This document shows positions 1-31,686 of a stretch of DNA of 59,174 bases, one piece after another; positions within the stretch are counted from its first letter, which is position 1; the number at the start of each line of letters is the position of its first letter. The translations under genes and the position numbers were made by a program. The notes under the pieces are model-generated. The model searched no databases, was not told the origin of the DNA, and saw only the letters and a program-made list of their open reading frames with translations. Origin of the DNA: Candidatus Eiseniibacteriota bacterium. GTDB lineage: Bacteria > Eisenbacteria > RBG-16-71-46. The stretch spans positions 1 to 59,174 of the forward strand of contig JBGAMH010000001.1 of NCBI GenBank assembly GCA_044223135.1, written 5' to 3'.

Positions 1-183
1 GCGTGGTCGCGCGTGCGCGACGGACGGCACTGGCCCAGCGACGTGGTGGCGGGCGCGGCGATCGGCGGCTGGACCGCGCGCAAGGTGGACCGCTGGGCGC
101 AGCACCGCCTGCCGGACGGCTTGCTGGTGCTGGCTTGGCCGTCGGCGCGCGGCGGGCGCGTGGTGATGGGAGCGCGCTTCTAG
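1..183 (+). CDS. PAP2-family phosphatase, C-terminal fragment (5' end outside window)
   Basis: Frame 1 is open from base 1 to TAG 181-183 and reads AWSRVRDGRHWPSDVVAGAAIGGW. This is the SR-x5-H-x3-D motif of PAP2 phosphatases. It is absent from the ORF track because it has no start codon in the window. Confidence 0.6.
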   Translation, partial: AWSRVRDGRHWPSDVVAGAAIGGWTARKVDRWAQHRLPDGLLVLAWPSARGGRVVMGARF

Positions 184-288
184 CGAACGCGCCCTCGCGA
201 GCGGCCCGTTGCCCGGCACGCCCCCTGCCGGTCACTTCGCGGCCACCGGCAGAACGTCGCCGGTGGCCGCGACGCACGTACGACGCAC

Positions 289-2004: not shown

Positions 2005-2038
2005 GAAGGCCTCCTCCGACGATGCGATGACGCGTCGA

Positions 2039-2054
2039 GGTGCACTCGTGCACC
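2039..2054. promoter_or_regulatory. palindrome GGTGCAC-tc-GTGCACC; candidate operator upstream of the repeat-protein gene
   Basis: Perfect 7-bp inverted arms lie 35-50 nt upstream of the ATG at 2004, in the 249-bp gap after the regulator gene. No protein has been assigned to it. Confidence 0.25.
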
Positions 2055-2253
2055 CGCGCGGGGCGGCTCGCAGCCGTCACCCGGTGCCGCGGGGGCATCA
2101 CCGGTCGGCCGCGCAGGTCCGCGTTCGTGGCAGCCACGGGAAGCCCCGACTTCGATTCCCCCGAAACGCCGCCGGGAACTTCCCGGGCTCCGAATGCAGA
2201 CTGGGGGCGATCGGTGCGGCCGGGGAGACTCGGAAGTGAGTCGGGTGCGTTCG

Positions 2254-17657: not shown

Positions 17658-17746
17658 CCGTTCCCCTCCCTTCGTGCTTCGGCCATAGTGCGACACCTCC
17701 CCGACGGTGCGACGAGTACCCGGACGACAGCAACCCGAGACGGAGC

Positions 17747-20700
17747 ATGTCCCACCCGCGCCACAACGACCAAGACTCGAAGCGCGTTCCGTGGCGCCGA
17801 CTGGTTCGGGGCCTCCTCCTGCGCCTGTTGCTGGGTGCGCTCGGCGCGACCTTCCTCGCGAGTCCGGCACCCGCACTCACGAGCGGCAGGCGCCCACGGG
17901 CGCTCGACGAGGCGCGCCGGATCGAGGCCCGGGCCTCCACCGATCGCGAGCGCGGAGCCGTCGGCGAGGCGGCGGCGGGCTTCGCGCGCGCGGCGGACCA
18001 CCGTTTCGCGGCGGGCGCGTCGCACTCGAACATCGCCGATCGACTGGACAGCCTGGGACGGACGTTTCACGACGTTCCCCATGCGGGCGCATGGGCGGCC
18101 GAGGACTCGCTGCTGGAGATCGCACACCAGTGGCGTCGACGGGATCCCGACGCCACGGCCTTCGACCTCGGGTTCGATCACCTCCAGCTCGCCCGGCTGG
18201 CCGTGGAAACCCACCGCCCCGCCACCGGCCTCCCTCACGCCGATTCGGCATGGGTCCTGTTCGCAGCCAGCCCCGATCCGGGCGCACGCCTCTACGGTGC
18301 TCTTGCGCGCGCGGCCAGAGGTCGGCTCTCGTTCGACGTCGGTGACTACGTCGACGCCGACACGTCGGCCACCGCGGCACTGTCGGGAATGGATGCCGGC
18401 GATGTGCAGCAGGCGCCCTACCGGTTCGACGCCCTCACCGCGCGCGGGGAAGCCCGACGCGAACGGGGTCGCCTCGCCGAAGCCGAAGCCGATTTCCGGG
18501 CCGCACTCGATCTCGCCGAACGCGAAGCAGCCGATCCGGCCTGGAGGCCCAACGCACTCAATCTCATTGCTGGCCTCCATCGCGATCAGGAGCGTTGGGA
18601 TCTTGCCGAACCGCTCCTTCGCGAGGCGCTGGAGCTGTCCCGTCCTCTCGAGCAGAACGATCCTCGTCGCGTCGCGACGGCCGTCTTGAACGTGGCGGAA
18701 GCCCTGCAGCACCAGGGACGGTCGCAGGAGGCAGCGCCCGGTTACCTCGAGGCCGTCGAGCGCGCGCGACGCGCGTGGCCACCCGAGGACCCGGGGCTCG
18801 TCGTGTTCCTGCAACAGGCCGGGGACTGCCTCCGGCAGGTCGGACGGGGGGAGGACGCCGAACGGCTTCTGCGGGAAGCCGTCACGACAGCCCGTGCCGA
18901 CTCGCAGGGCGGCCCACTCCCGCTCGCCGGTGCCATGCACGCACTCGCCGAGCTGATGCTCGAACGCGGCCGCGTGGTGGCCGCCGATTCGCTCGCCCGC
19001 GGATCTCTGACCCTGCGCGAACAGCGCCTCCCGTCGGATTCCCGTGTGCTCGCCGAAAGCCACGAGCTCCTCGCGCGCTGCGCGCTCGCGGAGGGGGCGG
19101 GTTCGCTGCGCGAAGTGGAGATCCATGCGGAAGCCGTGCTGCGCATCCTCGGGCAAAGCCCTCTCGCCCCCGACACGAGGCTCTCGGCATTCGCGGCCCT
19201 CGCGGGTGTCGCCGAAGCGCGCGGCGACACGGGCGCGTTCGATCGATGGATGGGAAGCGCCCTCCCGGTCGTCGACGAGTTGCGGCTGACGCGTGGGGGG
19301 GATGCCAGTCGGGTGCAGTTCCTGCGGCGCGCGCTCCCGATGTTCGACCGCGTATTCGATCACGCGATCGCGGTCGGCGACATCGACCGCGCCTTCCAGA
19401 TTCACGAGCGTGGCCGGAGCCGCGTCCTGCTGGAGACTCTCGCTGCTCCCCGCGCGCTCGGGGGCACGGACGACCGAAGCGGCGATCCGCTCGTCGCGCG
19501 CCTCGACACGCTGCGCCAGCAACTCACCGGCCTCCAGGCGCGGCTCGACTCGGAAGGGCAATGGTCGATGCTGTCCGAGAGCGTCCAGTTCGAGCGTCGG
19601 TCGGCCCTCGCGGCCCGTCGTGACAGCCTCGTGCTCGAGTACGCCCGTGTGCGAGACGCCGTCCGCATGCGCCGCCCCGGGTGGCGAGACGCGCTCGCGC
19701 ACTCGCGCTCGACCGTGGGCGCGCCCGCGGTCCTCGCGCACGCCCGGCGCCTCGGCGAGCCGGTGCTCGTCTATCACGTGAGTGCGCGGGGGGCGTGGCT
19801 CTTCTCGTTCCTGCCCGGCGATCGGCAACCGCGGCTCGACACGCTCCGGCTGGCCGAGACGGCGGCGCGGGCACTCGGAGTTCGACCCGGCCCGCTCGAT
19901 GACGCACGCCTCTCCGTGATCCTCGAAGGGACCTCGCCGGGAGCCGGGCTGCTCTCGGCCCTGGCGCGAGGTGAAGGGGACACCCGCGGATTCTCGCGCG
20001 TGCGCACCGACGCGGTGATCGCTCCGACCGACGCGCGACTGAAACTCCTGTTCGAAGCACTCGTTCCGGCCACGACCTGGCGCCGGATTCGCCATGCGCG
20101 TACGGCCGTCGTGATCCCGGACGGCAGCCTCGCGAGTCTGCCGTTCGATGCGCTCGTCGTGGACACCGGCGCGACGGCGTCCGCGCGCCGCTACTGGCTC
20201 GACGACGGCCCCGCATTGCGGGTCGCGCCCTCGGCGAGCACGCTGCTCGTGTTCGACGATCGTCCGCGCGGGCCTCATCGCGATGGCCGCCTCGCGCTGT
20301 CGCTGTACGACGTCGAATACCGGGACACTTCCCAGGCCGACCGAACCGTCGCCTGGAGACCGCTGCCGGGCACGCGCGTCGAGGCCGAACGGCTCCGCAG
20401 CGCGCTGGGAGCCGCCAACGTGGACACGCTTTCCGGTACGCGCGCCACGGAGGCGGCACTTCGAGAGGCTCTCCCCGGGCACGCGCTCGTCCACCTGGCG
20501 ACCCACGGCTTCGCCTCGGGGGACGAGAGCGAGCTGCTCGCTGGCCTGGTCCTCGCGCCGGGAACGAGCTCGCGTCGCCCCGAGGACGACGGCCGCCTCC
20601 AGTCGTACGAGTTGCCCGAACTCACGCTCGATGCCTCCCTCGTGGTGCTTTCCGCCTGCGAGACGAACGGCGGCCGGCGCATCGCGGGCGAGGGCGTGTT

Positions 20701-20947
20701 CGCGCTCTCGCGCGGATTCCTTGCCGCCGGCGCACAGCGCGTGATCTCCGCGCTCTGGTCGGTGCCCGACGATGCAACGGCCGAACTGATGGGCGGACTG
20801 TTCGAGCGCCTCGCCCCGGCGCTGCGCTCCGCGCGTACGCCCGATGCCGTCGTGGCGCTGCGCGACGCCAAGCGGCGCGTCCGGCGCGACCCCCGGTGGG
20901 CCGCGCCGTCCGCGTGGGCCGCGTTCACGATGTCCGGCCGCCGGTAG
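17747..20947 (+). CDS. TPR-repeat CHAT-domain protease-like protein with N-terminal hydrophobic anchor
   Basis: N-terminus MSHPRHNDQDSKRVPWRRLVRGLLLRLLLGALGATFLASPAPA. TPR-like helical repeats follow (LNVAEALQHQGRSQEAAPGYLEAVE and others). The C-terminal CHAT motifs are LVHLATHGF and VVLSACETNGG..GFLAAGAQRVISALW. Confidence 0.85.
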   Translation: MSHPRHNDQDSKRVPWRRLVRGLLLRLLLGALGATFLASPAPALTSGRRPRALDEARRIEARASTDRERGAVGEAAAGFARAADHRFAAGASHSNIADRLDSLGRTFHDVPHAGAWAAEDSLLEIAHQWRRRDPDATAFDLGFDHLQLARLAVETHRPATGLPHADSAWVLFAASPDPGARLYGALARAARGRLSFDVGDYVDADTSATAALSGMDAGDVQQAPYRFDALTARGEARRERGRLAEAEADFRAALDLAEREAADPAWRPNALNLIAGLHRDQERWDLAEPLLREALELSRPLEQNDPRRVATAVLNVAEALQHQGRSQEAAPGYLEAVERARRAWPPEDPGLVVFLQQAGDCLRQVGRGEDAERLLREAVTTARADSQGGPLPLAGAMHALAELMLERGRVVAADSLARGSLTLREQRLPSDSRVLAESHELLARCALAEGAGSLREVEIHAEAVLRILGQSPLAPDTRLSAFAALAGVAEARGDTGAFDRWMGSALPVVDELRLTRGGDASRVQFLRRALPMFDRVFDHAIAVGDIDRAFQIHERGRSRVLLETLAAPRALGGTDDRSGDPLVARLDTLRQQLTGLQARLDSEGQWSMLSESVQFERRSALAARRDSLVLEYARVRDAVRMRRPGWRDALAHSRSTVGAPAVLAHARRLGEPVLVYHVSARGAWLFSFLPGDRQPRLDTLRLAETAARALGVRPGPLDDARLSVILEGTSPGAGLLSALARGEGDTRGFSRVRTDAVIAPTDARLKLLFEALVPATTWRRIRHARTAVVIPDGSLASLPFDALVVDTGATASARRYWLDDGPALRVAPSASTLLVFDDRPRGPHRDGRLALSLYDVEYRDTSQADRTVAWRPLPGTRVEAERLRSALGAANVDTLSGTRATEAALREALPGHALVHLATHGFASGDESELLAGLVLAPGTSSRRPEDDGRLQSYELPELTLDASLVVLSACETNGGRRIAGEGVFALSRGFLAAGAQRVISALWSVPDDATAELMGGLFERLAPALRSARTPDAVVALRDAKRRVRRDPRWAAPSAWAAFTMSGRR

Positions 20948-21386
20948 AATCCGCGGGCCGCGAAGCCCGCTGCAGGAGCTCGGCGTCGCCGCCGAGCCGC
21001 AGCTCGATCGCACGAGAGCCCTGGTTCGTGACCAGCACGCGATAGCAGTCCCCGGGCAACACCAGCCAGGCCACCCGGAACTCGCCCTGGGTGTTCACGT
21101 GCCGACCCGCCGTGTCGCCATCCGCCGTGACGATCAGCACCTCGACGCGGCCCGAGTCCGCGCCCTGCACGTCGATCGTCGCGGAACCGATGCCGGCGAA
21201 GCACTCGGCGACCATCGATCGCTGCCCGGGACCGAGGTGAACCGCCTCGGCGTCCGCCCCGTCCGTCGCGCCGCCCGCGACCGCGTCCCGCCCGGTCCCC
21301 GCGCCGGCCAGCGCCGACAGCACCAGCACCGACGTGAGCCCGACCGCCAGGGGCACGGACGCACGTTTCCCCGAACCCTTCCTCAT
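20925..21386 (-). CDS. small exported beta-sandwich protein (distant PPC-like)
   Basis: 153 aa. SD gaggagg lies 8 nt before the ATG. Signal peptide MRKGSGKRASVPLAVGLTSVLVLSALAGAG. The C-terminal pattern GDCYRVLVTNQGSRAIELRLG parallels GGSYRIEVDNRGSVWNEYRIT of the PPC-like paralogs. It overlaps the CHAT gene 3' end by 23 nt. Confidence 0.6.
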   Translation of the reverse strand: MRKGSGKRASVPLAVGLTSVLVLSALAGAGTGRDAVAGGATDGADAEAVHLGPGQRSMVAECFAGIGSATIDVQGADSGRVEVLIVTADGDTAGRHVNTQGEFRVAWLVLPGDCYRVLVTNQGSRAIELRLGGDAELLQRASRPADSTGGRTS

Positions 21387-21500
21387 GACGATGTCCTCCT
21401 CTTCGCGCTGGGGAGCCGACTTTCCGGTGCGGAATCTCCACTCCGGCGATTTCGCTGCTCGCGGGGCGCCGCCGGGCGGCGCGTGCGTGCCGGTGCGAAG

Positions 21501-21526
21501 CCCTCGCCGGACCACTCCGGCGAGGG
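21501..21526 (-). terminator. 11-bp perfect GC hairpin downstream of the 21550-21930 gene
   Basis: ccctcgccgga-ccac-tccggcgaggg: a perfect 11-bp stem with a tetraloop, 24 nt past the stop at 21550. There is no U-tract. Confidence 0.45.
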
Positions 21527-21549
21527 CTGGTGTTCGGTCGTCGACTCCA

Positions 21550-21930
21550 TCAGTACGCGCCGATGCGGAAGTCGTTGTAGATGCCGCCGAGATTGCGGAC
21601 CACGACGCGGAAGTTGCCGCCGCGAGTCACGAAGAACGTGGCGACGCACTCGTCGCTGCTGTCCGTGTCGGAGGCGATCAGGCGACCGAAGCCGTCGTAC
21701 ACGAGGAGATCCAGGTCCGACGTGCCGTCGCCGCTCACCGTGATCTGCGTCCACTCGCCACTGCTGCAGCAGACGTCGAAGCTCCGGCTCGCGAACGCCT
21801 CCACGCGGTGATTCCCCCACTCGGCGCCGTTGCACGGATCCGCCGCCGCCGCGCGCGGCATCGCGGCCGAGATCGTCATCGCCGTCACCACCGTCAGCAT
21901 CGCCACACCGATCGCACGCATCGTCTTCAT
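21550..21930 (-). CDS. small exported PPC (pre-peptidase C-terminal)-like domain protein, paralog A
   Basis: 126 aa. AGGAGG lies 5 nt before the ATG. Signal peptide MKTMRAIGVAMLTVVTAMTISAAMPRAAAA. Motif ITVSGDGTSDLDLLVYDGFGRLIASDTDSSDECVATFFVTRGGNFRVVVRNLG, which is the DLDLYLYD-type PPC signature. Confidence 0.8.
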   Translation of the reverse strand: MKTMRAIGVAMLTVVTAMTISAAMPRAAAADPCNGAEWGNHRVEAFASRSFDVCCSSGEWTQITVSGDGTSDLDLLVYDGFGRLIASDTDSSDECVATFFVTRGGNFRVVVRNLGGIYNDFRIGAY

Positions 21931-22003
21931 CGTTGCCTCCTGGTCGCCGGCCCGTCGGGCCGCGGGTCTGGTTCCGGCGCTTCCCACGAGCGCCTTCGCC
22001 CCC

Positions 22004-22032
22004 TTCGTTGCGCAGGACGCGACGGTGTGACA
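22004..22032 (-). promoter_or_regulatory. bipartite element TGTCACAC-N13-GCAACGAA (copy a); candidate ECF-type promoter of paralog A
   Basis: Minus strand reads tgtcacac cgtcgcgtcctgc gcaacgaa, ending 74 nt before the start at 21930. Confidence 0.6.
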
Positions 22033-22216
22033 GCGATCGTGAAAACGGCGTCCGTGTGTGGGCGGAGGCGCTTTTTCATGGGGGAATCCCGCGCCGGGCT
22101 TGCTAGGCTTCCCGGGCGGGAAAGGCGTCAGCGGGCGTCCGTTCCCCGTTCACAGTCCGGACGTCCGGTGCGCCGGGCGTCACGACCGATGGACCTGGAC
22201 GCCTGGAGCCCTTCCC

Positions 22217-25200
22217 ATGCGCATGCGCCAATGGGTGCTCGCCGGCCATTTCGCCGCCGCACTCCTCGCCCTCGCCGCTATCGCCGCCCCCGCGCGTGCC
22301 GCCCGCACGCTGATCAGCCCGAGGCCGATCGACCGGCCGTACCCCACGTATGCGGGCGTGGTCATCGGGTCGTTCCGACCCGCGTGCAGCCAGGTGACGA
22401 TTCATGTGGCCCGCTGTTCGGATCTCCAGCTCGGCGGCTGCTACGGATTCGGCGGCGGTGGAACCTTCGACGTTCTGTGCGTCGCGGATTCCGCGTCGGT
22501 CGCGAACCACCTGACGACGGGCCTGCAGGGTTTCTCCGGCGGGTGCAACGCCGACGACGAGGGCCAGAATCGAAACACCCAGAACTACGACCAGACCAAT
22601 CGTTCCTTCCCCGTCCACTGGCAGGCCTCGTCGCGCGGATGGAGGCTCCATGGACAGGCGCAGTGGAACTCGGGCATTCGCCTCGCGCATTACGGAGACT
22701 CCGCCACCATCGTCGTCACGGGCCTCACGCTCGGGCAGGCCTACACGCTGTACGGAACGACTTCGCCCTACGATCCCCTTTCGTCGGGATCCGTCTGCAC
22801 GAATCTCACCGCGTGGGTCACCGAGGACTCGAGCATCGTCGAGCACGACTGGAGCACGTCCGCCAGCTCGGCGCTTCCCGTTTCGCTCGCGTCCCGAGCA
22901 TTCACGCTGGCCGCGAGCCCGCAGGGAGGCGTGTTCGTGCGGTGGTCCGATGGGGACAGCGCGCGCACGGCGCGCGTGGACGCGGACGGCGCCGCGAGCG
23001 TCTTCGACCGGTGGGTGGGAAGCGCGACGCACGGGCTGACGAAGCCGGACGGCTGGGCTTCCGTGACCGATGCGCAGGGAAACGAGCTCCGCCTCTGCGG
23101 AGAATACGGCGCGGGCTTTGGCGGAGCCTTCCTGTCGGCCCGCAAGTCCGACGGAGCGGGCAACGCTCTCGCAGGTTGGCCCGACCGTGGTGACCCGCCA
23201 CGGACGCTCGTCGACCTGACCGGGGACCAGGAAGCCCCCGCCGCGACGGCCACCTCCGACGGCGGCGCGATCGTGGCGTGGACCGACACGCGCAATGGCG
23301 CCTACTCACGCAACTGGCGGGACGTGCTCACGGCGGCCTCGACGGACGACTACCAGCTGCTCCGCGTGGACCTCCAGAACGACGGCCGCGACGAACTCCT
23401 CTCGGTCCGCATCGCCGAGGACCGGATCGTCGCGTTCGCCCGGCAAGGCGACGCACTCGCTCCGATCGACACGTTTCCGACCAGTCACACCCCCGTCATC
23501 GCGCGCACGGCGGACCTCAACGCGGACGGACGGCCCGATATCGTGGTCTCCTGCGCGAACAGCGACTCACTCGATGTGTACCTCAGCACAGGCGCCCCGG
23601 GCGTGTACGCGCGGGGCGCCATCACGGGGGCCGCCGGCGCCTCCGACCTCGTCCTGGCGGACCTCTCGGGTGACGGCCTTCCCGACGTGGCACACGTTCG
23701 CCCTCATGCACCGGCGATGGCCGTCCGCCTCGGGCTCGGAGGTGGCGCGTTCGGCCCGGCCATCGCCTACGCGGCCCCGGTCGAACCGGAGTTCATCGCT
23801 GCCGGAGATCTCGACGGCGATGGCCGCACGGATCTCGCCGTGCTCGGTTACACGACCCCCCAGGGAATCGTGCGTGCCTACCGGAACCTCGGAGGCGGCG
23901 TCTTCGCCGCCGCGGGAGATCGCAGCGTCGAGCCCTCCGCTCATGGTCTCGTGATCGGTAAGTTCGCAGGCGACTCCCGGGACGATGTCGCCGTGCCTCC
24001 GGGACTCAACGGGCCCAGCACCACGCTCAGGATCTTCGCCGGCAGTGCGGGAGGCGACATCCTCTCCGGAGGAGTCGCGAACATCTCGCTGGCGGCTCAT
24101 CCCTACACGCTCGTCACCGACGACATCGACCAGGACGGCTTCGCGGATCTCGTCGCGCCCTATTCCCCTGACGGGACCGCGCCAGCCCAGGTGCTCTGGG
24201 GATCGGCCGCGGGTGTCGGCGCTCCCGTGTCCCTGCCGGCCTCCCTCCGGTCCCGTTGGGCCGCGGCGGTAGACCTCGACGGAGACGGCGCACGGGAGCT
24301 GGTCCTGTCCGATACGGGTCCGGTTTCGCCCTACTGGAGCACGCTGCACGTCCACCAGCGAGTCCGACGCGGACGGGACGTCTATGCGCTGCGAGTGACT
24401 CCCGGGGGGGCCCCGGCGCCCGGCTGGACCGCCACGGGCCTCGCTGTCGCGACGGACACGATGGACGTCGAACACATCCGGATCGTCGGCGACGGCCAGG
24501 ATGGCGCCTACGTCGCCTGGGAGAGCTTCCCGCCCTCGGATCCTTCGGGGTGGCTCGTGTTCCCGAGGAAGGTCCGCGTGCAGCATGTGCTCGCGAACGG
24601 CGAACTCGATCCGAACTGGCCCGACAGCAGCTACGGTGGCGTGTGGCCCGGCGGATCCGTACCACAACACCTCACGGACCAGGTTCCGATGCCGAACGCA
24701 CCCGACGGCCTCGGAGGTGTGGTCCTCGGCTACTGGGCCGACAACCCTAACGAAGTGCGACGGGCGTACGCCCGCCGCGTCACCGACGCGTCGGAAGTGA
24801 CACCGCTGCTCCAAGCATCCGGCGGTGCGAGGCCGCGCCTGGGCGCGTGGCCCGACGCCGATGTCCAGGCGGCCTGGCAGGGTCTGGCCGGGAGCTTCTC
24901 GACCCTGCGTCTCTCACCGGAGGGGGTTCCCCGGCCGGGCTGGCCTTCCAACGGCACGATCCTCACGTCATCGCTCGACACCGGTGCGATCGAGGAGAAC
25001 GGGGCGCTCTGCATCACCGACTCGGCGCATGTCGTGTTCGCCTGGCGCGACAGCGGGCGGGTTCGCGTGCGGAGGCTGGGCGCGGGCGGAACCACCGGAT
25101 CGTGGCCCGCTCCCATCACGGCACTGTCTGCCGCTTCGTCGCAGGAGCAGCTCGTCGCGGGACGCCGGGGCGAGACGTTTCTGGCGGCGCGCGGAGCGGA

Positions 25201-26179
25201 CCAGATCGTCGTGCAGCGGATCGACGCGACCGGCGCGGTGGGCGACATGAGCCCCGAGATCGCCCTCGCGGCGGACAGGCGGCCCGACCAGGGTGGCGTC
25301 GTGCGCGTGAGCTGGCTGCCGAGCCCGCTGGAGCGCTCGACACCATTCCGCAATGAAGGCGGAACGTACCGGCTCTACACGGTCGCGCCCTCCGGTGCGC
25401 GCACGCTGGTCTCGGTTCAGACCGCCGGCGAGGGATGCGCCTACTGGGCGGACGTGGCGATCCCGGGAGTCGTGCCGGCGAACTTCACCGAGTTCGGCCC
25501 CAAGCCCCGAACGGTGTTCGAGCTCGAAACGCTCAACCCGACGACCGGGGACGTGCTGGTGGCGCCGCGCGACAGCGCCTTCTCGGTCGACGATCTCCCG
25601 CCGCCCGCACCCACCGCCTTCAGCTCGGCCTTCACCGCGACCGGGGCCGGGACCGGCATCACCGAGTTCGACTGGACCCCGACGCCGGTCGGCGACCTCG
25701 CGGAGTACCGGATCTTCGGCAGCCCGGATTCGCTGTTCTGGTCGCACGTGACGACGACGCCCGCACCGGCCTCGCACGCCAGCGCCCCGACGCCCGCGGG
25801 GAGGAGGTTCTTCCGGCTCTACGCTGCGGACATCCACGGCAACACGAGCGCGCCGGCTTCGCCGGTGTTCCAGCTCGATGCCCCCGACAGCGGCGCCCCA
25901 CTCACACTGTCCTTCGCGCCACCCTCGCCGAGCCCGGCCCGCACGAGCACGCACATGCGACTGTCGCTGCCCTCGCGCGCGTCGATCGAACTCGCCGCGT
26001 TCGACCTGCTCGGCCGGCGCGTGCGGCGCATCGCGGGGGGCGAGCGCGCCCCCGGCGTGTACGACGTGTCGTGGGACCTGCGCGACGACGAAGGCCTCTC
26101 GCTCGCGCCAGGGCTCTACCTCGTTCGCCTGCGCACGGGCGGCCGGGAGTTCCGCCATCGCGTCCTCGTCGTCCGATAG
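22217..26179 (+). CDS. giant secreted FG-GAP/VCBS repeat protein with FlgD-Ig/T9SS-like C-terminal domain
   Basis: 1320 aa. Signal peptide MRMRQWVLAGHFAAALLALAAIAAPARA. FG-GAP repeats VDLQNDGRDELLSV, ADLNADGRPDIVVSC, ADLSGDGLPDVAHV, GDLDGDGRTDLAVLG, DDIDQDGFADLVAP and VDLDGDGARELVLSD. The C-terminus reads IELAAFDLLGRRVRRI..APGLYLVRLRTGGREFRHRVLVVR. Confidence 0.9.
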   Translation: MRMRQWVLAGHFAAALLALAAIAAPARAARTLISPRPIDRPYPTYAGVVIGSFRPACSQVTIHVARCSDLQLGGCYGFGGGGTFDVLCVADSASVANHLTTGLQGFSGGCNADDEGQNRNTQNYDQTNRSFPVHWQASSRGWRLHGQAQWNSGIRLAHYGDSATIVVTGLTLGQAYTLYGTTSPYDPLSSGSVCTNLTAWVTEDSSIVEHDWSTSASSALPVSLASRAFTLAASPQGGVFVRWSDGDSARTARVDADGAASVFDRWVGSATHGLTKPDGWASVTDAQGNELRLCGEYGAGFGGAFLSARKSDGAGNALAGWPDRGDPPRTLVDLTGDQEAPAATATSDGGAIVAWTDTRNGAYSRNWRDVLTAASTDDYQLLRVDLQNDGRDELLSVRIAEDRIVAFARQGDALAPIDTFPTSHTPVIARTADLNADGRPDIVVSCANSDSLDVYLSTGAPGVYARGAITGAAGASDLVLADLSGDGLPDVAHVRPHAPAMAVRLGLGGGAFGPAIAYAAPVEPEFIAAGDLDGDGRTDLAVLGYTTPQGIVRAYRNLGGGVFAAAGDRSVEPSAHGLVIGKFAGDSRDDVAVPPGLNGPSTTLRIFAGSAGGDILSGGVANISLAAHPYTLVTDDIDQDGFADLVAPYSPDGTAPAQVLWGSAAGVGAPVSLPASLRSRWAAAVDLDGDGARELVLSDTGPVSPYWSTLHVHQRVRRGRDVYALRVTPGGAPAPGWTATGLAVATDTMDVEHIRIVGDGQDGAYVAWESFPPSDPSGWLVFPRKVRVQHVLANGELDPNWPDSSYGGVWPGGSVPQHLTDQVPMPNAPDGLGGVVLGYWADNPNEVRRAYARRVTDASEVTPLLQASGGARPRLGAWPDADVQAAWQGLAGSFSTLRLSPEGVPRPGWPSNGTILTSSLDTGAIEENGALCITDSAHVVFAWRDSGRVRVRRLGAGGTTGSWPAPITALSAASSQEQLVAGRRGETFLAARGADQIVVQRIDATGAVGDMSPEIALAADRRPDQGGVVRVSWLPSPLERSTPFRNEGGTYRLYTVAPSGARTLVSVQTAGEGCAYWADVAIPGVVPANFTEFGPKPRTVFELETLNPTTGDVLVAPRDSAFSVDDLPPPAPTAFSSAFTATGAGTGITEFDWTPTPVGDLAEYRIFGSPDSLFWSHVTTTPAPASHASAPTPAGRRFFRLYAADIHGNTSAPASPVFQLDAPDSGAPLTLSFAPPSPSPARTSTHMRLSLPSRASIELAAFDLLGRRVRRIAGGERAPGVYDVSWDLRDDEGLSLAPGLYLVRLRTGGREFRHRVLVVR

Positions 26180-26197
26180 CCCGGGGACGAGCCGAAG

Positions 26198-26222
26198 CCC
26201 CGCCGGGGATCTCCCGGCGGGG
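26198..26222. terminator. 10-bp GC hairpin between convergent genes
   Basis: ccccgccggg-gatct-cccggcgggg, 19 nt after the stop at 26179. There is no U-tract. Confidence 0.4.
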
Positions 26223-26328
26223 CGAGGGGCTTCGTCACCGTGCCAGCGGGTCGCGGTGCGGAGCCTCCCGGATCGTGCTCCGCGTGGGGCGAGACCTCCT
26301 TTCCGGTGCGCCCACGCACCGGCGGGAA

Positions 26329-26688
26329 TCACCGCGCCGTGATCCGGTACTCGTTCCAGACGGACCCGCGGTTGTCGACCTCGATGCGATAGCTGCCGCC
26401 GCGCGGCACGTAGAACCGCGTGATGCACACGTCGGTGTCGTCGTCGTCCGACGCGATCATGCGGCCGCTCTCGTCGTACACGTACAGATCGAGATCGGTG
26501 TCGTGGTCGCCGATCACGGTCACGCTCGCGTACTCGCCGCCGCGGAACGACACGTTGAACGCATCCTCCGACCACGCGTTCACGCGGTGCACGCCCGTCT
26601 GCGTCCCTCCCCAGGGACCCGCCACCGCCGCCTGCGCCACCGCCACCACCGCCAGCACCGCCGCCACCAGTCCGTTGAACTTGCGCAT
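26329..26688 (-). CDS. small exported PPC-like domain protein, paralog B
   Basis: 119 aa. AGGAGG lies 6 nt before the ATG. Signal peptide MRKFNGLVAAVLAVVAVAQAAVAG. Motif VTVIGDHDTDLDLYVYDESGRMIASDDDDTDVCITRFYVPRGGSYRIEVDNRGSVWNEYRITAR. Roughly 45% identical to paralog A by hand alignment over about 87 aa. Confidence 0.85.
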   Translation of the reverse strand: MRKFNGLVAAVLAVVAVAQAAVAGPWGGTQTGVHRVNAWSEDAFNVSFRGGEYASVTVIGDHDTDLDLYVYDESGRMIASDDDDTDVCITRFYVPRGGSYRIEVDNRGSVWNEYRITAR

Positions 26689-26763
26689 CGTCTGCCTCCT
26701 GTCGGTGAGCCCGATGGGCTCGTGGTCTTCGTTCCGGCGCTCCATCCGAGCGCCTTCACACCG

Positions 26764-26792
26764 TTCGTTGCTCGACCCGGCGGGCTGTGACA
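26764..26792 (-). promoter_or_regulatory. bipartite element TGTCACAG-N13-GCAACGAA (copy b)
   Basis: Minus strand reads tgtcacag cccgccgggtcga gcaacgaa, ending 76 nt before the start at 26688. Confidence 0.6.
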
Positions 26793-26935
26793 TCGGAGTC
26801 CCCCGCGCGCCACGAAGCGCGGTCGCGCCGCAGGTGGAGTGGTGGACGGCGGCGCCGCAGGCACGAGACACGAAGAAGCGGACCGGCCGCATGGGCCGAT
26901 CCGCTCCTCGTACCGAGCTCCGCTTGCCGCGCGGG

Positions 26936-27304
26936 TCAGTCGCCGTGGCGCAGGTGGCGCAGTCCCTCGCGCCAGGGATGCACGCGGGCCCCGCGACAGT
27001 CGCTGCCCTCGCAGTCGCCCGCGGCGCGCGCGGCGCGACGGTCGCCCGTATCGCAGACCTGCGGGCGGGCGACACGGCCGCGACAGTCATTGCCCTCGCA
27101 GTCGCCGCGGGCCGATGCGACCGCCGCCGCCGCAGGCGCGCTCCCGGCGAAGCACGGATCCGTATCGCATTCGCCGCGAACGACAACCACCACCGTGGCC
27201 GGTGCAGGGGTCTCGATGCACGGATCCGTCTCGCAGCTCCGTCCCGGGCCGGCCATCGCCACGAGCCCCAGTCCCAGCGCCAATCCCATCACGATCGCCT
27301 TCAT
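26936..27304 (-). CDS. small exported acidic Cys-repeat (CX4C) protein with His-rich tail
   Basis: 122 aa. GGAGG lies 6 nt before the ATG. Signal peptide MKAIVMGLALGLGLVAMAG. Repeats CETDPC, CDTDPC, GDCEGNDCRG and GDCEGSDCRG. Tail HPWREGLRHLRHGD. The nucleotide repeat gacagtc(g/a)(c/t)tgccctcgcagtcgcc appears twice. Confidence 0.7.
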   Translation of the reverse strand: MKAIVMGLALGLGLVAMAGPGRSCETDPCIETPAPATVVVVVRGECDTDPCFAGSAPAAAAVASARGDCEGNDCRGRVARPQVCDTGDRRAARAAGDCEGSDCRGARVHPWREGLRHLRHGD

Positions 27305-27364
27305 CTGCCACCTCCTTCGTTCGAGTGTCCGCCGTGGATCCGGCGGCCCGTTGCCGCCGCCCGC

Positions 27365-27393
27365 TTCGTTGCCCGGAGCGCCCGGGTGTGACA
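27365..27393 (-). promoter_or_regulatory. bipartite element TGTCACAC-N13-GCAACGAA (copy c)
   Basis: Minus strand reads tgtcacac ccgggcgctccgg gcaacgaa, ending 61 nt before the start at 27304 and 13 nt after the lipoprotein stop. Confidence 0.6.
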
Positions 27394-27405
27394 CCCCGTC
27401 CGGCG

Positions 27406-27780
27406 CTAGTTCACGTTCAGCGACACGGCGGCTGGCACGTCGCTGTCGTTCTCGACCGTGATCTCCACGCGTCCGCCCCCCTGCGCGGCGCCCCCGACCA
27501 CGTCCGCACCCGTGTACGCCCCCTCGGCGGCGAGCGCGCCCGACGCCCCGAAGACCCGGACCTCCATGCCCACGGTGACGAGTCCCGGGCTGCACGCGAC
27601 GGCCCACGTGCCGTCGTGCGCGAACGTCTGACCGACCACGACCCGCTCGCCCGGATTCACCGAGCGCGTGTTGAGCGCGGTCGCGAGGATGTCCTCCGCG
27701 ATGCACCCCGTGAGCGAAGCGCCGACCAACCCCGCCAGCACCAACGCCATCGTCGCCCGAACCGCCTTCCGCATCGCCAT
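27406..27780 (-). CDS. small lipoprotein, beta-rich
   Basis: 124 aa. GGAGG lies 6 nt before the ATG. Lipobox in MAMRKAVRATMALVLAGLVGASLTGC. The C-terminus GGGRVEITVENDSDVPAAVSLNVN resembles the last strands of the PPC-like proteins. Confidence 0.7.
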   Translation of the reverse strand: MAMRKAVRATMALVLAGLVGASLTGCIAEDILATALNTRSVNPGERVVVGQTFAHDGTWAVACSPGLVTVGMEVRVFGASGALAAEGAYTGADVVGGAAQGGGRVEITVENDSDVPAAVSLNVN

Positions 27781-27850
27781 GCCGCACCTCCCGTTCGTGG
27801 GCGGGCACCGCGCGCCGTCCGGGGCGCGGCGTTTCCGCCGGTACGCCTCG

Positions 27851-27879
27851 TTCGTTGCGCGCGCGGCGCGCGTGTGACA
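27851..27879 (-). promoter_or_regulatory. bipartite element TGTCACAC-N13-GCAACGAA (copy d)
   Basis: Minus strand reads tgtcacac gcgcgccgcgcgc gcaacgaa, ending 71 nt before the start at 27780. Confidence 0.6.
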
Positions 27880-27901
27880 CCCGGACGGCCGACGGTTTCC
27901 G

Positions 27902-27931
27902 TTGACCCTGTCACACGCGGTTCCCTAGGCT
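27902..27931 (+). promoter_or_regulatory. sigma70-type promoter candidate TTGACC-N18-TAGGCT for the sigma operon
   Basis: ttgacc at 27902-27907 and taggct (fits TAnnnT) at 27926-27931, 51 nt before GTG 27982. The spacer contains TGTCACAC (27909-27916), the inverted mate of the box at 27872-27879. Confidence 0.4.
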
Positions 27932-27981: not shown

Positions 27982-28563
27982 GTGACGGAACCCATCCCCG
28001 CCCGAGAGGAACAGCGCATCGCGTCGGAAGCCCGCACCTGGTACCTCGCCTTCTTCGAGCGGCGGGTCGGGGCGCGTGGCCGCGACCTCGCTGACGACCT
28101 CGCCCAGGAAGCGGCCATCGGCCTGCTGCGCGCGCTGCGCGCGACGGGCGCCGATTCGCTCGAGGCCCTGCGCGCGACCATCGGAACGCGTACGTGGTTC
28201 GGCTTCCTGCGCCGCGAGTACCGGTGGAAGAAGGTCTGGGACGACACCGCCGTGGAAGAGACGGACGCGCCGGCGCCGCCCGCGACGCAGCCCGGGGCCC
28301 ACCTGCACGTGGGTGATCCGGGCGAACGACTCCGATTCCAGGTGCTCGAGTTCTATCGCGCCCACAACGCGAAGTGCCTGGGGCTCGCCGAGCTCTTCTT
28401 CGGCGGGGTGGACTGGATGGACGCCGCCTCGCGGCTGAACCTGGGGTACGCGGCCATCCGCCAGCAGTGGTCCCGCTGCCTCAAACTGCTGCGCGAAGTC
28501 GTGACCCGCGACGAGGACCTGCGTGACTCGCTCTGGGCCTTCTGGAGCGACAGCGATGCCTGA
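27982..28563 (+). CDS. ECF-type sigma-70 family factor (divergent)
   Basis: 193 aa from a GTG, with GGAGG 12 nt upstream. Region-2-like segment DLAQEAAIGLLRAL..TRTWFGFLRREYRWKK. Region-4-like HTH WMDAASRLNLGYAAIRQQWSRCLKLLRE. Followed by an anti-sigma gene. Confidence 0.65.
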   Translation: MTEPIPAREEQRIASEARTWYLAFFERRVGARGRDLADDLAQEAAIGLLRALRATGADSLEALRATIGTRTWFGFLRREYRWKKVWDDTAVEETDAPAPPATQPGAHLHVGDPGERLRFQVLEFYRAHNAKCLGLAELFFGGVDWMDAASRLNLGYAAIRQQWSRCLKLLREVVTRDEDLRDSLWAFWSDSDA

Positions 28564-28723
28564 CGCCCGTCACAGCGAGGCCCCCCGCGCAACGATGCCT
28601 GCGAGGGGCCGATGGATCGGGGGCGTTCGCGGCGGGAACGGCACCCGGTGCGAGGGCGCGAGCCCGTGGATCCACCACGGCGCAGCGACCGCGCAGAGGC
28701 CCTCGAGGTCTGCGAATGAGTGA
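28556..28723 (+). CDS. possible 55-aa bridging ORF between sigma and anti-sigma genes
   Basis: Its ATG at 28556 overlaps the sigma stop (ATGCCTGA) and its stop at 28721-28723 overlaps the anti-sigma start (ATGAGTGA). GC3 is about 84% by hand count. The Arg/Gly-rich sequence has no recognisable motif. Confidence 0.25.
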   Translation: MPDARHSEAPRATMPARGRWIGGVRGGNGTRCEGASPWIHHGAATAQRPSRSANE

Positions 28724-29675
28724 CACGCGAACGCCTCCGGGCGGCCCGCCGCCGGCCGACCACGCCTGGGTACTGAGTCGCCTCGCCCCGTACTGGGCCG
28801 GCCTGCTCGACGACTCCGCGAACGAGCGCGTCGAGTCGCACGTCGCCTCGTGCGAGCCGTGCCGACGCGCATGGGAGGCGCAGTCCGCGACGCCGGCGAT
28901 CACGCCGGGAGCCGAAGCGCACGTACCGGCGGCGCTCGTCGCGGACTGGGATCGCCAGCAACGCACGCTGCGCGGGCTCGAACGGGCCACCGTCCGGCAT
29001 CACCTCGAACGCTGCGACGATTGCCGCCGCGACCTGCAGGCACTCGGTCACGAGCCCGTGCTGGAGTTCATCGCCGCGCTCGAGCCCGAGGGCATGATGC
29101 CCGGCACGGCGGCGCCACCCGCCGCTGCACGGCGGGAGGTTCGACCGACGGCGATGGAGGGCGCGCTCGATCGCCTGCGCCGTTTCAACTGGGTCCTCGG
29201 AAGCTGGGCCGCCCTCGCCACGAGCGCCGCCGCGGTGATGACGTTCGTGCTGTTGCGCGGTGGGGCACCGATCCCGGAGGGCACGCTGCCGCAGCCGGGA
29301 TTCGGCGGACCGGGCACGACCAGCATCTCCTCCGGCGCACTCCCTTCGGTGGAGGCCGCGGTCACGCTCGTGCTTCAGCCGGGGGCACCGGGCGAGGGAC
29401 CGGTCGCCCTGGCCCCGGCGGCGGCGCCTCGACGCGTGATCGCGCTGCAGCTGCGCGGGCTGACCACCGCACCCGACGACAGCCTCCGGTTCGTGATCGA
29501 GCAGGGCTCGCGGACCGTCGTCCGGCAGGCTCTGCCAGCGAAGCTCGCCGCCGATTCGGTGTTCACGGTGGTCCTGCGCGGCGCCCCGAGGGCGCTGCCG
29601 CCGGGCGCCTACCGGCTTCGCGTCGGGGGTGCCGCCGGGGAGAGGGCGTATGCCTTCCGAATCGCGGAGCGCTGA
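28716..29675 (+). CDS. membrane anti-sigma factor with two zf-HC2 (ZAS) motifs
   Basis: HVASCEPC and HLERCDDC both fit H-x3-C-x2-C. One transmembrane segment (WVLGSWAALATSAAAVMTFVLL) is followed by a ~135-aa extracytoplasmic domain. Confidence 0.75.
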   Translation: MSDTRTPPGGPPPADHAWVLSRLAPYWAGLLDDSANERVESHVASCEPCRRAWEAQSATPAITPGAEAHVPAALVADWDRQQRTLRGLERATVRHHLERCDDCRRDLQALGHEPVLEFIAALEPEGMMPGTAAPPAAARREVRPTAMEGALDRLRRFNWVLGSWAALATSAAAVMTFVLLRGGAPIPEGTLPQPGFGGPGTTSISSGALPSVEAAVTLVLQPGAPGEGPVALAPAAAPRRVIALQLRGLTTAPDDSLRFVIEQGSRTVVRQALPAKLAADSVFTVVLRGAPRALPPGAYRLRVGGAAGERAYAFRIAER

Positions 29676-31686
29676 GCGCAAGCGAGGCCCACGAGGGATC
29701 GCGGTGCGCCTCGGAACGGGCCTGGCGCTCACGCTCATGCTCACGCTCGCGCTCGCGAACGGCGCGGGTTCGGCAGGACCCGTCCGGCTCGTGCGCCCCG
29801 GCGCGACGGTCGAGCTCCGACGCGCGCCCATCGGCACGCAACCGCTCATCGGCCTGCCGGTGGTTCGCGCCCTGCGGGCAGGCAGCACGCCGAAACGCCG
29901 TGAAGCCGCCGACGACCGCCTGGTCGCCTATCACGTCGAGTTCGCCGACGCGGCCAGCTGCAACCGGTACGCACCGCCCGGAGGGACGGTCTTCCATCGC
30001 TTCCAGCGCTTCGCCGGCGTGTTCGTGGCTTCGGACCGGATCGACGACCTCGTCCGGGCCACGGTGCGCGCGCCCGGATTCCGCGCGATCGAGGACGACG
30101 ACATCACGCAGCTCCCTCCGCGCCCCCGGCCGAGGACCGCACCACCCTCGAAGGCGGTGCCCGAGAACATCGTGCGCGGCGGGCTCGCCGGGCTCACCGG
30201 GCGCGGCACGCTCGTGGGCATCGTGGACACCGGCGTCGATTTCCGGCACAGCGACTTCGTCACGGAAGGGTCCGACGGTCCTCGTTCACGCATCGTGGCG
30301 TACTGGGACACCGGCCTGCCGTTCGATCCGTCGCGCGGCAGCGGGCGACCGGGCCCGATCACCTATCCGAACGGCCAGCCCGTGGGCACGGTGTTCACCG
30401 GCGCCGAGCTCACCCACGCCCTGCGGAATGGCGGACTCGACGATCTCGTCGATCACGTCGGGCACGGCACGGCCTGCGCCGGGATCGCCGCCGGCAACGG
30501 GCGCGGCCTGGAGAGCACGCGCGAGGTGCTGGGCGTGGCTCCCGGCGCCGCGCTGCTCGTGGTGCGCGCCCAGACCTCGGACGAACTCCCCGGGCTCTCG
30601 AACTTCGTGATCACTCCCGCGGTCCACTGGATGAGCACCATCGCCGACTCGCTGCGCCGCCCGCTCGTCGTGTCCTGCTCGTTCGGCCAGCAGATCGGTC
30701 TGCACGACGGCAGCCGGCTCGTCGAGCGCGAACTGGAAGCGCTGCTGCCGGACGGAGCGCCCGGGCGCGCACTCGTCGTTTCGGCGGGCAACGACGGCAC
30801 GCGGCCGGTGCATGCTCGCATGACGCTCGGCGCGAAGCCGCAGGTGCTCGAATGGCATTGTGGCGACGGCGACGCGTTGCTCGAGCTGCACCTGCGGACC
30901 CGCGACTCGAGCGCGGTGCAGGCCGCGGTCGCCGTTCGCTCCGACAACCGCCCGTCCGACATCGCGACCTACCCGCTCGCGCCCGTCGTGAAGGGCTCCG
31001 CCTGGCAGATCGTGCGCTTCCGGGTGGCAGGCGACATCGGCGGCATCTACCTCTGGTCGAAGACTCCGGGCGTGCCGGTCGAGGCCTACATTTCGGGTGG
31101 GGAGTTCGCCGCCCGGTTCACGGTGCCGACGGGCACGGTGGCGAGCCCGGGTACGTGCCGCGCGGCGATCACGGTGGGGAGCTACGACTGGAACGACATG
31201 TTCGATCAGAAGGGGCTCGGCCCGACGACACTCTTCAACGCCTGTTCGGAGACACCCATCGAGATCGGTGAACTCTCGTGCTATTCCAGTCGAGGCTTCG
31301 TGCACCGCGGGCTCGTGAAGCCCGACCTCGTCGCGCCCGGGCAGTGGTTCACGGCACCCGTGTCTCTCCTCGCGCCCGATCGGCCCGCCGGGCTCGGCAT
31401 GGCTTCCGCGGGAGTGTACGAAGGCCTGCACGGCTCCGGGCACTACCGCTGGTTCAACGGCACGAGCGCTGCCGCGCCATACGTGGCGGGCGTGCTCGCT
31501 CTGGCGCTGGAGCGCGATCCCCGTCTCACGCTCGGTTCGCTTCGAAACCGATTGCGCGCGAGCCTCTCGCGGGACGCGACGACCGGCGCCGTGCCCAACA
31601 CGGCGTGGGGATACGGTCGGCTCGACCTCGCCGCCGTGAAGCGGTTCCTCGCCGTCGGCGTGCGCGCCACACCCCGGGGTCGTTGA
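29650..31686 (+). CDS. secreted subtilisin-like serine peptidase (family S8)
   Basis: Signal peptide RLGTGLALTLMLTLALANGAGSA. Catalytic triad contexts GIVDTGVDFRH, DHVGHGTACAGIAAG and FNGTSAAAPYVAGVLALAL, with VVSAGNDG for the oxyanion Asn. It overlaps the anti-sigma 3' end by 26 nt; the alternative start is 29629. Confidence 0.9.
   Translation: MPSESRSAERKRGPRGIAVRLGTGLALTLMLTLALANGAGSAGPVRLVRPGATVELRRAPIGTQPLIGLPVVRALRAGSTPKRREAADDRLVAYHVEFADAASCNRYAPPGGTVFHRFQRFAGVFVASDRIDDLVRATVRAPGFRAIEDDDITQLPPRPRPRTAPPSKAVPENIVRGGLAGLTGRGTLVGIVDTGVDFRHSDFVTEGSDGPRSRIVAYWDTGLPFDPSRGSGRPGPITYPNGQPVGTVFTGAELTHALRNGGLDDLVDHVGHGTACAGIAAGNGRGLESTREVLGVAPGAALLVVRAQTSDELPGLSNFVITPAVHWMSTIADSLRRPLVVSCSFGQQIGLHDGSRLVERELEALLPDGAPGRALVVSAGNDGTRPVHARMTLGAKPQVLEWHCGDGDALLELHLRTRDSSAVQAAVAVRSDNRPSDIATYPLAPVVKGSAWQIVRFRVAGDIGGIYLWSKTPGVPVEAYISGGEFAARFTVPTGTVASPGTCRAAITVGSYDWNDMFDQKGLGPTTLFNACSETPIEIGELSCYSSRGFVHRGLVKPDLVAPGQWFTAPVSLLAPDRPAGLGMASAGVYEGLHGSGHYRWFNGTSAAAPYVAGVLALALERDPRLTLGSLRNRLRASLSRDATTGAVPNTAWGYGRLDLAAVKRFLAVGVRATPRGR

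Follow-up and report, generated by a model that had tools for sequence, protein, structure and literature searches.

Bipartite promoters predicted for a divergent ECF-type sigma factor and its zinc-finger anti-sigma partner in Candidatus Eisenbacteria

A 59,174-nucleotide stretch of DNA from a Candidatus Eiseniibacteriota bacterium (GenBank assembly GCA_044223135.1, contig JBGAMH010000001.1, positions 1 to 59,174; hereafter the window, to which coordinates refer unless another locus is named) carries five oriented copies of a bipartite element that pairs a TGTCACA-like box with a GCAACG-like box at a fixed distance. Four copies precede small genes for exported proteins, and the fifth lies between the gene for a divergent sigma factor of the extracytoplasmic function (ECF) type and that of its putative anti-sigma factor. 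Taking together the frequency of the element, its conservation in related loci and its association with this family of sigma factors, we consider it very likely that the five sites serve as promoters for RNA polymerase bound to the sigma factor whose gene lies at 27982-28563. The system very probably represents a real but ordinary type of bacterial switch, in which an ECF sigma factor, an anti-sigma factor and a local set of promoters are combined, in the little-studied Candidatus Eisenbacteria.

Bipartite sites in the window

The window, which has a G+C content of 72.6%, was scanned with the pattern TGTCACAS-N13-GCAACGAA, allowing at most two mismatches, and the expected frequency was derived from 100 dinucleotide-preserving shuffles of the 59 kb sequence. 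Five matches were found versus 0.06 expected, and a count of five was reached in none of the 100 shuffles. A generalised form of the pattern, GTCACA-N15-CRAC, also occurs five times, versus 0.30 expected. Taken separately, GCAACGAA is present five times (1.0 expected), four of these occurrences belonging to the bipartite copies on the minus strand, and TGTCACA shows no enrichment (5 versus 3.5 expected); the signal is the pairing of the two boxes at a fixed distance and not TGTCACA by itself. The sites are as follows:

22004-22032, minus strand: promoter copy a, TGTCACAC-N13-GCAACGAA, exact; 73 nt to the ATG of gene a
26764-26792, minus strand: promoter copy b, TGTCACAG-N13-GCAACGAA, exact; 75 nt to the ATG of gene b
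27365-27393, minus strand: promoter copy c, TGTCACAC-N13-GCAACGAA, exact; 60 nt to the ATG of gene c
27851-27879, minus strand: promoter copy d, TGTCACAC-N13-GCAACGAA, exact; 70 nt to the ATG of gene d, which encodes a predicted lipoprotein
28568-28596, plus strand: promoter copy e, a new, fifth site, CGTCACAG-N13-GCAACGAT (cGTCACAG-N13-GCAACGAt), two mismatches

The four minus-strand copies are exactly those of the original prediction, made from the letters of the window, with 15 of the 16 box positions invariant among them. Each has the same orientation as the small gene downstream, and the 60-75 nt from the end of the box to the start codon agree with the 61-76 nt given earlier, the count being shifted by one. 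Copy c begins 12 nt past the stop codon of gene d, and copy d is divergent from the sigma gene, 102 nt from its start. Copy e, the candidate promoter of the anti-sigma gene, had been overlooked; 5 nt separate it from the sigma stop codon on one side and 119 nt from the anti-sigma ATG on the other. The spacer between the boxes had been described as fixed in length and free in sequence, of which the first part holds, the length being 13 nt in every copy, but the second needs to be amended: spacer positions 11-12 read CG in all copies of the window but one (b, c, d and e, at 26774-26773, 27375-27374 and 27861-27860 on the minus strand and 28586-28587 on the plus strand), the exception being copy a with TG. 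Given this constraint 2 nt before the GC(A/G)ACG box, the -10 region may be longer than four bases. A sigma-54 promoter was considered as well and rejected, the boxes lying 13 nt apart and not conforming to GG-N10-GC.

Conservation at orthologous loci

Contigs encoding five other close homologs of the sigma factor served as orthologous loci (here denoted by L and a number, as are the more distant loci below) and were scanned for the motif with three mismatches allowed. The strain whose sigma factor is 95% identical to that of the window is a Candidatus Eisenbacteria metagenome-assembled genome (MAG). All five contigs are syntenic with the window, with small secreted-protein genes, an FG-GAP protein, the sigma factor, the anti-sigma factor and an S8 peptidase, and in all five the motif stands at the corresponding places, upstream of the orthologs of genes a/b, c and d. 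In orthologous loci with a sigma factor that is 58-83% identical, it is found both before the target-gene orthologs and after the sigma stop codon:

Copy a: L001 5317-5345, L008 2951-2979, L021 482-506
Copy b: L021 5197-5221
Copy c: L007 358-386; a variant in L021 reads TTTCACAC-N13-GCAACGAA
Copy d: L001 9851-9879, L007 867-895, L008 7471-7499
Copy e, position occupied: L007 1573-1601, L008 8195-8223, L011 2462-2490, L021 6999-7023

At the position of copy e, L001 has a degenerate form, GGTCACGA-N13-GCGACGGC. Across the five window sites and approximately 17 orthologous ones the inter-box spacer is always 13 nt long and every site points at a gene, and most of the spacer sequence and the flanks diverge among orthologous sites. 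The consensus for this subgroup is (T/C/G)GTCACA(C/G)-N13-(G/A)C(A/G)ACG(A/G)N.

The sigma factor and its family

The candidate regulator is encoded next to copies d and e:

27982-28563, plus strand: ECF-type sigma factor gene, 193 aa, GTG start

When searched alone, the window protein gives a weak match to Pfam Sigma70_r2 (E = 0.0034, 17.6 bits versus a cut-off of 24) and scores 16 bits versus a cut-off of 42.9 with the NCBIfam model TIGR02937. A word-indexed search of 5.8 billion proteins returned only six close relatives, with 58-100% identity, and an exhaustive hidden Markov model search of 1.84 billion cluster representatives yielded 312 at E<=1e-3. A family profile (A2) was built from 75 members and compared with solved structures, among which region 2 of Mycobacterium tuberculosis SigE was the best match (1e-10), followed by an unnamed ECF sigma factor, SigL, BldN, SigR, SigH, SigC, SigJ (0.012) and SigK; the full-length profile alignments to SigE, SigL and SigK reach across region 4.2. 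Pfam Sigma70_r2 matches 73 of the 75 members (best 3.7e-11) and Sigma70_ECF matches 14, and the more typical members are annotated by NCBI/JGI as sigma-70 family factors. Family members are about 175-200 aa in size and the window protein, at 193 aa, is without regions 1.1 and 3. By these profile comparisons the window sigma factor belongs to a genuine but divergent ECF family, which may already be one of the 157 ECF groups.

The divergence is pronounced in region 4, where residues C132, W145, W163 and C166 (encoded at approximately 28375-28479) are invariant in the 75 family members and the sequence AVRKQWSRC is a hallmark. Among the same 75 proteins, this region matches Sigma70_r4 in 7, r4_2 in 2 and a Myb-like model in 25. 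With its two invariant cysteines, the sigma factor might itself be subject to redox or metal control. An AlphaFold2 model computed from six sequences has a predicted local distance difference test score (pLDDT) of 65 overall, with a helical region 4 at pLDDT 80-89, and the top PDB matches of this model in Foldseek are almost all sigma factors.

The motif across the distant sigma family

Members of the family that are only 35-40% identical to the window sigma factor include two paralogs, each with a zf-HC2 partner, on one 379-kb MAG contig. In the neighbourhoods of these two, the form GTCACA(C/A)-N13-NCGAC(A/C) has seven sites (distant locus L018) and three (L015), versus 0.08 expected, and all ten are situated upstream of a co-oriented called gene, nine within approximately 20-170 nt and one at 552 nt. 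These sites fix the register of the motif, so that the core shared with the window is GTCACA-N15-C(G/A)AC. The GCAACG box of the window represents a local version of GCGACG, which L001, a member of the close subgroup, still has.

A wider sample of 50 metagenomic loci (253 kb) was gathered by means of the family-specific peptide [VI]RKQWSRC. When x in GTCACA-Nx-CGAC was varied from 8 to 23, this set gave 33 occurrences for x=15 and between 0 and 4 for every other value, and nearly all of the x=15 sites are just upstream of the sigma gene. With CGTC as the -10 element, the 50 loci contain no match at spacers 14-17. Once the first box was relaxed to [GT]TCAC[AG], the motif could be recognized at most 350 nt before the sigma gene, on the coding strand, in 39 of the 44 loci that were eligible by having enough sequence upstream of that gene; in the controls, the opposite strand gave one locus and any other spacer at most four. 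A position matrix of 31 distinct sites has C at spacer position 11 in all 31 and G at position 12 in 28. The genes consistently common to the family loci are those of the sigma and anti-sigma factors. Because the motif tracks this pair at one spacing and in one orientation, the window motif is best explained as a local variant, with CAAC for CGAC, of the cognate promoter of the sigma family. Conservation of a motif upstream of an ECF gene is the usual criterion by which ECF target promoters are predicted (PMC7826278).

A second element, (C/G)ATCTG(G/A)TTCGGTG, was observed in five of the soil-metagenome family loci (L025, L030, L038, L044 and L058), where it lies between the promoter and the sigma gene, approximately 10-15 nt before the probable sigma start.

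A candidate promoter of the sigma gene and the probable anti-sigma operon

Three further features define the arrangement around the sigma gene:

27902-27931, plus strand: housekeeping-type promoter candidate of the sigma gene, TTGACC (27902-27907)-N18-TAGGCT (27926-27931)
28716-29675, plus strand: anti-sigma factor gene, 319 aa, with two HxxxCxxC motifs (zf-HC2), one predicted membrane helix and an outer C-terminal part
29629-31686, plus strand: subtilisin-like S8 peptidase gene (Pfam Peptidase_S8, 3e-33)

In the orthologs compared within the Eisenbacteria subgroup, the family motif is absent upstream of the sigma gene. The upstream region carries CGTTGAC(C/G)-N18-TAG(G/C)CT in five orthologs, with an 18-nt spacer that is fixed in length and variable in sequence, and this looks like a -35/-10 pair of the housekeeping type. 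The TTGACC-N18-TAGGCT candidate had already been pointed out in the original prediction, which missed its conservation; a sigma-70 promoter scan did not report it, because TAGGCT shares only three of six positions with TATAAT. Inside its spacer, at 27909-27916, is an inverted TGTCACAC box to which attention had also been drawn. The box is present as described, but it reads TGTCGCAC in the strain with the 95%-identical sigma factor and is absent or replaced by unrelated sequence in the four other orthologs, and because of this lack of conservation we place no functional weight on it and reject it as an operator or a second promoter. Comparison of the loci indicates that the family motif has moved, or was retained, 3' of the sigma stop codon, ahead of the anti-sigma and S8 peptidase genes.

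The anti-sigma protein matches Pfam zf-HC2 in two stretches (7.9e-11) and NCBIfam anti-sigma models as well. Its two HxxxCxxC motifs read H-VAS-C-EP-C and H-LER-C-DD-C (residues approximately 41-50 and 95-104), and the second is part of a signature, LRGLER..VR.HL.RC..CR.DL..LGH, that is kept in distant soil-metagenome relatives. Distant family loci, too, encode a tandem-HxxxCxxC protein directly 3' of the sigma factor. Judged by the HxxxCxxC domain and the position of its gene next to that of the sigma factor, the protein is an anti-sigma factor of the zinc-associated (ZAS) type, with zinc and sigma binding predicted. The anti-sigma gene and the S8 peptidase open reading frame (ORF) overlap at the end of the former; order and overlap are alike in L001, L007 and L008, and the two genes probably form one operon.

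The interval between the sigma and anti-sigma genes also contains a 55-codon ORF (28556-28723, plus strand), which has its ATG 5 nt before the sigma stop codon, encloses promoter copy e and overlaps the anti-sigma start codon with its end. The frame is open in six of six orthologs, with a length of 54-56 codons, but its peptide lacks conservation and the 3' frame is shifted between the window and the strain with the 95%-identical sigma factor; it could be a translated coupling ORF or an artefact of the high G+C content.

Predicted regulation and alternative explanations

If the sites are promoters for this sigma factor, GTCACA would be the -35 element, contacted by sigma domain 4, and C(A/G)AC, 15 nt downstream within the GCAACG box, would be the -10 element, contacted by domain 2, with transcription predicted to start a few nucleotides downstream of GCAACGAA. 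The conserved TTGACC-N18-TAGGCT promoter would provide basal synthesis of the sigma factor, which presumably is kept inactive by the membrane-anchored zf-HC2 anti-sigma factor encoded adjacent to it. Upon release, the sigma factor would direct transcription of the four genes for small exported proteins, each from its own promoter (two products resembling the pre-peptidase C-terminal, or PPC, domain, one cysteine-rich protein and one lipoprotein) and, from promoter copy e, of the anti-sigma/S8 peptidase operon. As that operon would then be sigma-dependent, induction would feed back negatively, and the sigma gene would lack the positive autoregulation that is otherwise usual.

The original prediction had interpreted the minus-strand copies as -35/-10 promoters of the neighbouring ECF-like sigma factor that mark a compact regulon, and this is now supported by their conservation in orthologs and by the motif in 39 of 44 family loci; the asymmetry of the motif, which is always directed at a downstream gene, points in the same direction. 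Several observations weigh on the other side. Start sites and sigma dependence are predictions from sequence comparison, and the scan covered 59 kb of the genome, so that the regulon is possibly larger. The -10 element, CGAC or CAAC, differs from the common ECF CGTC, and the common ECF consensus, AAC in the -35 and CGT in the -10 element, is not matched in the first box either, which has CAC as in group ECF41. The window sigma factor itself falls under the curated Pfam and NCBIfam cut-offs, its structure model is modest (pLDDT 65) and the Foldseek E-values are all >0.05. Domain 4 is strongly divergent, and a family profile restricted to it matches no solved sigma factor among all PDB sequences. 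Finally, the sigma gene has no motif upstream in this subgroup, so that the argument from autoregulation depends on relatives.

The alternative that best survives these observations is that the sites are promoters or activator-binding sites used by some other regulator, for instance another alternative sigma factor or a DNA-binding activator encoded elsewhere, their adjacency to the sigma gene being coincidental or indirect. The link between sites and sigma factor comes from comparing sequences, the sigma gene of the subgroup is without the motif upstream, and ECF41 sigma factors read the same TGTCACA -35 box, so that an ECF41-type factor elsewhere could read a similar site. Nevertheless, the motif follows the sigma family through very different contexts and lineages in which the sigma and anti-sigma genes are the sole constant neighbours. 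With regard to an ECF41-type regulator in particular, the -10 element is CGAC or CAAC and never the CGTC of ECF41, and neither a SnoaL-extended sigma factor nor a gene of the carboxymuconolactone-decarboxylase/oxidoreductase/epimerase (COE) type that ECF41 factors control is present in the window region or among the genes called in the related loci. We therefore regard another regulator as improbable.

Still less probable, in our estimate, is that the boxes act as parts of the transcript, in a 5' leader or RNA regulatory element, or are remnants of the upstream regions of duplicated paralogs. Genes a and b are indeed paralogous, and their leaders share an invariant GAAGGCGCTC-N5-GAGCGCCGGAAC hairpin just past the box. 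The boxes, however, are common to the non-homologous genes c, d and the anti-sigma gene, are not complementary to each other and have between them a sequence under little constraint. As for the leader hairpin, only the PPC-like genes have it and there is no covariation in it, Rfam has no match in the window, and in distant relatives the boxes precede sigma genes, with unrelated sequence downstream. Chance similarity, a dispersed repeat or the end of a mobile element, to which one might turn given a genome with 72.6% G+C and the lack of enrichment of TGTCACA alone, has a negligible claim against five paired sites where 0.06 are expected, boxes that are conserved when their flanks are not, a position and orientation to genes that are kept in orthologs, and a single sharp spacer peak.

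Comparison with known ECF systems

The promoter interpretation invites a comparison with group ECF41, for which the motif TGTCACA-n16(+/-1)-CGTC has been reported with mapped start sites (Wecke et al. 2012, PMC3426412). Sigma factors of this group carry a fused, SnoaL-like C-terminal regulatory extension of approximately 100 aa, have no anti-sigma factor and control a neighbouring COE gene as their sole target (PMC3426412; PMC7826278). The original prediction had named, correctly, both the TGTCACA element of ECF41 and the lack of anti-sigma partners, and it had suggested that the window would represent a different pairing, as is borne out by a protein of 193 aa with no extension and a zf-HC2 anti-sigma gene next to its own. 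The two systems have in common the identical -35 heptamer TGTCACA, an oriented bipartite layout with a spacer of 15 nt, within the 16+/-1 of ECF41, and a small local regulon adjoining the sigma gene. They differ in the -10 element, which in the window is C(G/A)AC(G) and never CGTC; in the sigma factor, which ends soon after region 4 and has no SnoaL/NTF2 match in Pfam; in the presence, here and throughout the family, of a zf-HC2 anti-sigma gene directly downstream; and in the neighbourhood, which has no COE gene and consists of small secreted proteins, an FG-GAP protein and an S8 peptidase. In addition, SigE is matched by the family profile far better (1e-10) than is the ECF41 protein SigJ (0.012). 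On these grounds the window sigma factor is not a member of ECF41. A residue-level link between its domain 4 and that of SigJ was also sought and abandoned, the domain-4-only profile having given no sigma factor in the PDB.

A further parallel is offered by the classical ECF/ZAS modules SigR-RsrA, SigE-RseA, SigH-RshA and SigL-RslA, which likewise combine a two-domain sigma factor, an adjacent and co-oriented HxxxCxxC anti-sigma gene, whose product in the window has a predicted membrane anchor, and a bipartite cognate promoter. Unlike these, the anti-sigma factor of the window has two tandem HxxxCxxC motifs, conserved family-wide, domain 4 of the sigma factor is atypical (C132, W145, W163, C166), and the sigma gene of the Eisenbacteria subgroup has no motif of its own upstream. 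Sigma-driven expression of an anti-sigma factor has a precedent in Escherichia coli, where rseA has a sigmaE-dependent promoter inside or after rpoE. The confinement of the regulon to neighbouring genes, with conserved synteny and motif, resembles the local-regulator ECFs of Todor et al. 2020 (PMC7776599), the main text of which gives no description of the window sigma family, its motif or its targets. A search of the literature text for GTCACA or TGTCACA together with ECF terms led only to the work on ECF41. The ECF56 promoter was discarded as a counterpart, as its motif, CGATGAGTT-N14-GGTC, differs.

What is unusual about the window system is the combination of an ECF41-like -35 box in a family that is not ECF41, a region 4 marked by cysteines and tryptophans, a tandem zinc-finger anti-sigma factor and, in one subgroup, a sigma gene without a sigma-dependent promoter upstream. 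We entertain as a tentative and rather unlikely proposition that the family is an undescribed ECF group distinguished jointly by four features. In that event, a Myb-like domain 4 with an invariant pair of cysteines and an invariant pair of tryptophans, unrelated to that of ECF41, would read an ECF41-like GTCACA; the duplicated HxxxCxxC of the anti-sigma factor would make redox or metal sensing by the cysteines of both partners possible; the rewiring in Eisenbacteria, with a constitutive sigma gene and only the anti-sigma/S8 protease operon sigma-dependent, would amount to a pure negative-feedback (pulse-type) circuit; and the S8 peptidase, co-transcribed with the anti-sigma gene, might act together with the small exported PPC-like proteins as the signalling or output module.

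Current understanding of ECF regulation is not overturned by these results, which provide a testable set of sigma factor, promoter and anti-sigma factor for Candidatus Eisenbacteria and define a promoter, GTCACA-N15-CGAC(G), for a small divergent ECF family across soil metagenomes. They suggest that the -35 box regarded as specific to ECF41 is also used by an ECF factor under anti-sigma control with a very different domain 4, a point relevant both to the encoding of -35 specificity and to picking orthogonal ECF parts when synthetic circuits are designed. The apparent loss of sigma autoregulation in one subgroup, with the anti-sigma promoter retained, would be a natural example of circuit rewiring.

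Target genes and neighbourhood

The translated products of genes a-d begin with signal-peptide-like or lipobox sequences. These genes, together with a fifth one located downstream of gene a, are:

21550-21930, minus strand: gene a, 126-aa secreted PPC-like protein, paralog of gene b
26329-26688, minus strand: gene b, 119-aa secreted protein; Pfam PPC E=5.7e-4, under the gathering score
26936-27304, minus strand: gene c, 122-aa secreted cysteine-rich protein with repeated C-x-x-D/N-x-C units
27406-27780, minus strand: gene d, 124-aa predicted lipoprotein with an LTGC lipobox
20925-21386, minus strand: gene a2, 153-aa secreted protein, downstream of gene a

Three tandem single-gene units, with one site apiece, are formed by genes d, c and b. 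The product of gene a is 47% identical to that of gene b and 53-56% identical to those of the 124-aa genes that follow the same promoter in L001 and L008. For gene c, the L007 ortholog (L007_99) shows 47% identity and is preceded by the promoter, as is each of the orthologs of gene d in L007, L001 and L008.

Gene a2 may be a former member of the regulon or one that is reached by read-through. Its orthologs carry a motif of their own (GTCACA-N15-CRAC; L001 4769-4797, L008 2401-2429), and the region upstream of gene a2 in the window (21387-21549, minus strand) retains only a GCAGCGAA relic, at approximately 21452-21459, the -35 box having disappeared, which looks like decay of the promoter in the window lineage. 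A strong hairpin, GCCCTCGCCGG-N6-CCGGCGAGGGC (21500-21527), stands between gene a2 and gene a.

The leaders of the PPC-like genes contain the invariant GAAGGCGCTC-N5-GAGCGCCGGAAC hairpin a few nucleotides past the predicted transcription start, followed by a second hairpin, GGCCCG-N4-CGGGCC. The block is kept between paralogs that are only 47% identical in protein sequence, and no covariation was seen in it. It is found at these positions:

21931-22003 and 26689-26763, minus strand: leader block in the window
5242-5316: leader block in L001
2876-2950: leader block in L008

Upstream of the FG-GAP gene of the window, approximately 110 nt from its start (22217), there is a second TAGGCT (22104-22109, plus strand); no TTGAC is present 17-18 nt from it, and it is probably a chance occurrence. 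Large proteins of the TPR/CHAT and caspase-like (Peptidase_C14) types, and secreted proteins of the FG-GAP/FlgD_ig type, border the regulon in close orthologs, none of the following having the motif upstream:

17378-20947 and 22217-26179, plus strand: large flanking proteins in the window
1-4126: large flanking protein region in L001
11784-14747: large flanking protein region in L015

In L015, a distant relative, the sigma/anti-sigma pair is followed by a TPR protein of 987 aa.

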